DNA of 28,560 bases from Escherichia coli (lineage in GTDB: Bacteria; Pseudomonadota; Gammaproteobacteria; Enterobacterales; Enterobacteriaceae), in assembly GCF_003334815.1 (NCBI RefSeq), contig NZ_QOWO01000045.1. One strand, 5' to 3'. Below, in pieces: positions 1,384 through 1,677 of the stretch. Within the stretch, counting starts at the first letter, position 1. Every line of letters starts with the position of its first letter. Below the pieces are notes generated by a model. The model saw only the letters and a list, made by a program, of their open reading frames with translations. It ran no database searches and had not been told where the DNA came from. Position numbers and translations under genes: made by a program.

Positions 1384-1677
1384 TTATTGTGAGCAATACA
1401 CACGCGCTTCCAGCGGAGTATAAATGCCTAAAGTAATAAAACCGAGCAATCCATTTACGAATGTTTGCTGGGTTTCTGTTTTAACAACATTTTCTGCGCC
1501 GCCACAAATTTTGGCTGCATCGACAGTTTTCTTCTGCCCAATTCCAGAAACGAAGAAATGATGGGTGATGGTTTCCTTTGGTGCTACTGCTGCCGGTTTG
1601 TTTTGAACAGTAAACGTCTGTTGAGCACATCCTGTAATAAGCAGGGCCAGCGCAGTAGCGAGTAGCATTTTTTTCAT
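1384..1677 (-). CDS. bor: Bor lipoprotein (serum-resistance lysogenic conversion protein)
   Basis: 97-aa ORF MKKMLLATALALLITGCAQQ... with lipobox LITGC. Size, convergent orientation and position after Rz match lambda bor. Confidence 0.85.
   Translation of the reverse strand: MKKMLLATALALLITGCAQQTFTVQNKPAAVAPKETITHHFFVSGIGQKKTVDAAKICGGAENVVKTETQQTFVNGLLGFITLGIYTPLEARVYCSQ

Follow-up and report, generated by a model that had tools for sequence, protein, structure and literature searches.

Can a prophage that has lost the means of making particles still influence its host through a gene that it carries intact? The question is raised by a 28,560-nucleotide stretch of Escherichia coli DNA (NCBI RefSeq assembly GCF_003334815.1, contig NZ_QOWO01000045.1), referred to here at its full length as the window, in which the open reading frame (ORF) at 1384..1677 on the minus strand had been read as the lysogenic-conversion lipoprotein gene bor. 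We conclude with high confidence that this ORF is the bor gene of phage lambda, a lysogenic-conversion ('moron') gene that is probably driven by PhoP of the host and that belongs to the right arm of a recently crippled, lambda-like prophage at the att-lambda site.

The ORF starts with ATG and runs uninterrupted through 97 codons plus stop, with no frameshift or internal stop in the ORF listing; its translation starts with MKKMLLATALALLITGCAQQ and ends with RVYCSQ (full product: MKKMLLATALALLITGCAQQTFTVQNKPAAVAPKETITHHFFVSGIGQKKTVDAAKICGGAENVVKTETQQTFVNGLLGFITLGIYTPLEARVYCSQ). In a tblastn search of 50,697 phage records, the protein was 100% identical to phage lambda Bor over all 97 residues, and direct comparison of the DNA with a phage lambda record gave 0 differences in 294 nt. 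The product also matches the Pfam family Lambda_Bor (PF06291; E = 2.2e-30, model positions 1-75 of 75) and PHROG 260, 'Bor-like outer membrane protein' (E = 2.5e-58, residues 1-97 of 97), and RefSeq labels identical DNA 'serum resistance lipoprotein Bor'. The match is beyond chance, and the original prediction, which held that the gene is bor, that it is intact and convergent in orientation, and that its prophage is defective, stands on all three points; bor, on the minus strand, faces Rz/Rz1, whose plus-strand end is at 1352. The gene has already been described, and this copy of it is ordinary. Two plus-strand ORFs that overlap bor (1424..1561 and 1465..1665) found no support and were taken as chance ORFs.

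Within the coding sequence, the beginning of the product is occupied by an export signal:

1627..1677, minus strand: signal peptide, codons 1-17, made up of MKK, a hydrophobic core and the lipobox I-T-G-C17 (regular-expression match)

The expression [LVI][ASTVI][GAS]C matches Bor residues 14-17, and the Pfam model LPAM_1 gives a weak match to residues 1-18. Residue +2 is alanine, and there is no Asp inner-membrane retention signal. By an established rule, lipoproteins with Ala rather than Asp at +2 are sorted to the outer membrane by the Lol system, so delivery of Bor by this route is predicted. Bor is thus a predicted lipid-modified, outer-membrane protein: the 97-residue precursor would be exported by Sec, diacylglycerylated at Cys17 by Lgt, cut by signal peptidase II and N-acylated by Lnt, and the Lol system would then take it to the outer membrane as a lipoprotein of ~80 residues.

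Residues C17, G45, Q48, A54, C58, Y86, P88 and C95 are all present in the window's Bor and are invariant across 25 homologues of 41-60% identity, in an alignment rebuilt without the frameshifted, noisy copies of lambda bor that had polluted the first representative set; C58 and C95 probably form a disulfide. Many of the 60-75% 'homologues' of Bor are such noisy copies. The AlphaFold model, a confident one (predicted local distance difference test score, pLDDT, 90.5), has a signal helix followed by a compact alpha/beta domain with a four-stranded sheet and two short helices. A PDB sequence search with Bor returned nothing at E <= 1. The NCBIfam Leptospira family LA_3781 was sub-threshold for Bor (20 bits vs a cut-off of 160) and was not used. 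No defence-system model in PADLOC was matched by Bor, so an anti-phage role for the protein is not supported by homology. Sequence resembling bor is nearly universal in E. coli: of 5426 complete genomes, 4520 gave matches, the median being 2 places per genome.

Whether such a gene would be expressed in a damaged prophage depends on the signals that surround it, which are as follows:

1746..1730, minus strand: PhoP box TGTTTAGGGTTTGTTTA, a perfect match, with the direct repeat TGTTTA-GGGTT-TGTTTA, taking the place of a -35 element in the proximal promoter of bor
1717..1712, minus strand: candidate -10 hexamer TACGAT, read from the sequence, 12 nt past the PhoP box and ~35 nt before the ATG
1791..1764, minus strand: sigma-70-like candidate CTGACA-16-AACAAT, from the consensus scan
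1833..1807, minus strand: sigma-70-like candidate TGGACA-15-TACAAT, equivalent, when mapped by offset, to the 'promoter' upstream of bor in the HK630 record
1911..1886, minus strand: terminator-like hairpin with a T-run, from the scan, after the ybcV/lambda-p78-like gene and between that gene and bor
1352..1377, both strands: palindrome with a perfect 11-bp stem and a 4-nt loop (RNA fold), where the converging genes Rz and bor end, 7 nt past the bor stop

The PhoP box is the sole match to KGTTTA-N5-KGTTTA in the window, where 0.01 would be expected by chance, and TACGAT would serve as the -10 element of the bor promoter. Because the number of hits in the consensus promoter and terminator scan was not above that in shuffled sequences, the promoter assignment draws not on the scan but on the PhoP box and its counterparts in lambda and the prophage DLP12. 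The PhoP box and the -10 hexamer are identical in lambda, DLP12 and Stx phage TL-2011c; the region upstream of bor, to ~200 bp, and the hairpin at its 3' end are identical to lambda, save for a 1-nt insertion or deletion at 1879. The hairpin at 1911..1886 suggests that bor would be its own transcription unit. The palindrome at the other end of the gene (-21.8 kcal/mol, z = -3.5) has no T-run on either strand and may act as a 3'-end stabiliser or as a terminator. An Rfam scan of the whole window found no family in or near bor.

The expression of bor has been described elsewhere: induction of DLP12 borD, which is documented as belonging to the PhoP regulon, depends on PhoQ for both the RNA and the protein and goes together with that of mgtA, slyB and mgrB (PMC5740661), and bor is among the few lambda genes expressed in lysogens (PMC7067206). 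In the window, bor would be transcribed from a host sigma-70 promoter activated by PhoP (i.e. under low Mg2+, cationic peptides, acid or osmotic upshift), with no phage regulator needed. Expression would thus rely on the host's PhoP and sigma-70 rather than on Q, N or CI, and the gene should not fall silent when phage functions are lost. From the anatomy of the promoter, together with the published data on the identical DLP12 promoter, we infer that bor expression should be host-dependent and should survive prophage decay.

The extent of that decay can be read from the rest of the element, of which the window contains the following features:

182-397, plus strand: essD, a holin of phage-21/DLP12 type, intact
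397-894, plus strand: rrrD, a signal-anchor-release (SAR) endolysin of phage-21/DLP12 type, intact
891-1352, plus strand: Rz, intact, with the embedded Rz1 at 1111-1293, also intact
1968-2501, minus strand: ybcV/p78-like gene, intact
2664-2870, plus strand: ybcW/p79-like gene, intact
3035-3229, minus strand: ylcI-like gene, intact
3429-3440, plus strand: cos cohesive-end sequence GGGCGGCGACCT, intact
3618-4163, plus strand: Nu1/nohD
4138-5016, plus strand: truncated terminase large subunit gene, A'
5010-5779, plus strand: remaining C-terminal part of the tail-tip protein gene J, with the A'/'J junction at 5010-5016
15157-15171, plus strand: lambda att core GCTTTTTTATACTAA, marking the right end of the prophage (attR), with ybhB and bioA beyond it; one exact match, where 0 would be expected

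The lone att core, adjoining ybhB and bioA, identifies a lambdoid prophage at att-lambda, of which the window holds the right arm together with host DNA. The prophage is integrated between ybhC and ybhB/bioA. Over 24.8 kb (positions 159-25000), the window matches the chromosome of E. coli strain 52F4, an independent complete genome, at 100% identity; the order in 52F4 is ybhC, int, xis, a truncated early region, rusA, ylcG, quuD, a porin gene, essD, rrrD, rzpD, bor, ybcV, ybcW, ylcI, nohD, terminase A (partial), J (partial), lom (partial), stf, tfa, ea47, ea31, ea59, ybhB, bioA, bioBFCD and uvrB. The position of bor, after the end of Rz at 1352, on the opposite strand and before cos, is shared by lambda, HK630, 434, Perceval, TL-2011c and DLP12.

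Compared with lambda, the window is 99.0% identical from Rz to the middle of A (891-5016, 40 differences) and 99.2% identical from tfa to attR (9257-15157). The cos/intergenic region (3230-3617, ~390 bp) is the most diverged, with 16 differences (4.1%) vs 0-1.3% elsewhere. The C-terminus of J, lom and stf are those of another lambdoid lineage (phi458, ev099, cdtI).

The large deletion bears out what was first supposed, namely a defective prophage without its morphogenesis genes. The match of terminase A to lambda ends at 5016, at about codon 293 of 641, and the last ~255 codons of J follow from 5010; at the junction there is a short imperfect microhomology (GCCCGTTAT / GCCGGTAT) and a few-base overlap of the alignments. 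Since A' is joined directly to 'J, the genes W, B, C, Nu3, D, E, FI, FII, Z, U, V, G, T, H, M, L, K and I are absent, i.e. ~16.6 kb of head and tail genes as measured on lambda. Compared with phage phi458, a further ~505 bp have been deleted, and this second loss joins the N-terminal ~116-126 codons of lom (outer-membrane protein), in frame, to stf (side tail fibre), giving an ORF of 1185 codons (5849-9406, plus strand) whose Lom part carries its signal peptide; RefSeq divides this ORF, annotating one piece as a lom pseudogene and the other as a 'phage tail protein'. At the left edge, positions 1-158 are the end of an element of IS10/ISVsa5 type (transposase C-terminus and a terminal inverted repeat ending at 158), directly upstream of essD and absent from the otherwise identical 52F4. 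With this insertion in place, the lysis genes would be cut off from the Q/late-promoter region. Beyond the window, the early region as seen in 52F4 is deleted too: exo is truncated, and no repressor or replication genes are annotated.

Elsewhere in the prophage, ea31 (HNH) and ea59 (AAA ATPase) of the lambda b region (11942-14406, minus strand) are intact, and they match the PADLOC models PDC-M01B/PDC-M01A and PtuA (Septu-like) with E values between 1e-113 and 1e-202; a candidate pair for anti-phage defence has thus been preserved in the remnant as well. The Rfam scan gave three matches above the gathering score, all away from bor: IS009 in the tfa gene (9749-9947, plus strand), the small RNA CssrF/ES036 downstream of uvrB (23435-23476, minus strand) and the molybdenum cofactor (Moco) riboswitch upstream of moaA (24741-24885, plus strand).

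Is bor then intact because the host has selected for it? The surroundings of the gene speak for timing. The 2.4 kb around bor (944-3352) differ from lambda at 4 positions (about 99.8% identity), and Rz, Rz1, p78, p79, ylcI and Nu1 are all intact as well; these observations indicate that the decay of the prophage is very recent, and an intact ORF of 294 nt is then expected under neutrality. The suggestion that bor had been 'retained' is consequently upheld in so far as the gene is present and undamaged, and is not upheld as a sign of selection, since every neighbour is undamaged too. Most likely, bor is intact through very recent prophage decay and not through demonstrable selection on bor itself. 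Purifying selection is visible at the level of the family, with ratios of nonsynonymous to synonymous substitution rates (dN/dS) of 0.03-0.47 between bor-, 434- and plasmid-iss-type alleles, and values as low as 0.03-0.15 between bor- and iss-type alleles.

According to papers that cite them, Barondess and Beckwith (1990, 1995) reportedly first tied lambda bor to the serum survival of lysogens. The phenotype ascribed to Bor/Iss is increased serum survival, by a mechanism still unreported (PMC12413066), and for the window a modest gain in serum survival from bor would be the corresponding expectation, taken from the literature. That the remnant may still affect its host through bor, as the original prediction proposed, is in our view plausible, and the proposal is strengthened because the host-type PhoP promoter is identical to that of lambda and DLP12.

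Two published results weigh against such an effect. In avian pathogenic E. coli (APEC) O78-9, the prophage bor/iss allele is transcribed, yet even its overexpression did not make up for plasmid iss (PMC4313913), and in the mouse gut bor did not offset the cost of carrying lambda (PMC4752277). Both favour the strongest alternative, namely that bor is here a phenotypically silent passenger, which owes its intact state solely to the very recent crippling of the prophage and adds nothing measurable to serum resistance; the near identity to lambda around the gene and the soundness of its neighbours fit the neutrality that this alternative supposes. Against it stand the low dN/dS between bor- and iss-type alleles, the detectable induction of BorD protein via PhoQ/PhoP (PMC5740661) and the fact that old remnants such as DLP12 still keep bor with its promoter intact, besides the reported serum survival of lambda lysogens. 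We place the chances of the silent passenger well below even.

A different objection concerns not whether Bor acts, but what it acts on. Bor could serve primarily, within the PhoP regulon, to adapt the outer membrane or envelope to low Mg2+ or antimicrobial peptides; complement resistance would then be a side effect and not a dedicated activity against complement. The perfect PhoP box in the -35 position and the co-induction with mgtA, slyB and mgrB (PMC5740661) agree with this, as does the lack of any resemblance between Bor and known complement-binding folds. The family is also large (1113 representative clusters at E <= 0.001), and its members occur well beyond serum-exposed pathogens, e.g. 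on Pantoea plasmids at 58% identity. On the other hand, single deletion of borD causes no osmotic-stress defect (PMC5740661), and the phenotype of plasmid iss shows itself specifically in serum (PMC4313913). We consider a primary envelope role unlikely.

Related to this is the upstream DNA of the iss-type genes. Within 125 nt upstream of the genes of phage 434, phage Perceval and a ColV-type plasmid, we found CATTTA-N5-CGTTTA followed after 12 nt by TAGGAT, in register with the PhoP box and -10 hexamer of bor, in DNA that apart from these half-sites and the -10 is unrelated to that of bor. This likeness was not found stated in the literature that we looked at. PhoP control may, on the strength of the shared register, be a trait of the Bor/Iss family. 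Tentatively, and as an idea that we hold more doubtful than probable, the whole family, including the iss gene of ColV plasmids, might be regarded as a mobile module in the host's PhoQ/PhoP regulon, with remnants domesticated for envelope adaptation. If the half-sites are functional, remnants like the one in the window would be domesticated members of the PhoP regulon, whose real role would be envelope adaptation inside the host.

The last alternative, that the lambda-identical segment is an artefact of lambda control DNA contaminating or chimerising the assembly, draws on the visible abundance of such DNA in public data and was rejected as very improbable, given that the segment is continuous on one side with non-lambda lysis genes of essD/rrrD type and on the other with the deletion junction, the b region, attR and bioA/uvrB, that 52F4 has the same arrangement at 100% identity over 24.8 kb, and that 40 differences from lambda lie between 891 and 5016. 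As an observation on the databases themselves, Bor matches of 100% occur on contigs of ~3.5 kb, in plant assemblies, in Staphylococcus, on a 1968-bp Acinetobacter 'plasmid' and in 'Campylobacter phage CJLB-4'; many such matches are probably lambda control DNA.

Returning to lambda bor in a crippled att-lambda prophage, we stress that the locus matters little beyond its correct annotation and gives no special handle on the mechanism of Bor/Iss. It illustrates that bor can persist, and probably stay expressed under host PhoP, after its prophage has lost the capacity to make particles, and that the intactness of bor alone is no proof of selection.

Comparison with known systems places the gene more precisely. 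Like lambda bor, with which it shares its coding sequence (0 of 294 nt differing), ~200 bp of upstream DNA save for the indel at 1879, and the 3' hairpin, the window's gene lies after Rz/Rz1 and before p78/p79 and cos in the same orientation, in a prophage integrated at att-lambda. The element differs from lambda in its holin and endolysin of phage-21/DLP12 type, its J C-terminus, lom and stf of another lineage, and the A'..'J deletion.

Since bor/iss is routinely scored as a virulence marker, the distinction from plasmid iss is of practical relevance: the chromosomal copy here is the lambda bor allele. Plasmid Iss (ColV/ColBM type) belongs to the same family and has the same length, lipobox and cysteines, with 90.7% protein identity; it differs by nine amino acids, with dS about 0.32, and its gene is plasmid-borne with an otherwise unrelated upstream region. 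An assignment of the window's allele to plasmid iss (the AMRFinder 'iss' of ColV type) was ruled out by these values of identity and dS and by the different upstream DNA, which make it bor type. In APEC O78-9, serum survival needed plasmid iss and not the chromosomal prophage allele (PMC4313913).

DLP12 borD of E. coli K-12 (ybcU, b0557) offers the parallel of an intact bor in a defective lambdoid prophage, with the same essD-rrrD-rzpD-bor-ybcV-ybcW-ylcI-nohD synteny and the same PhoP-box promoter. A prophage homologous to DLP12 has been described as argU-associated (PMC4313913). The window's allele differs from borD by three amino acids (P28Q, A29T, Q97K) and 5 nt, so it is not K-12 b0557; and whereas DLP12 occupies another chromosomal site and is far more decayed, the remnant in the window sits at att-lambda beside bioA and is nearly identical to lambda.
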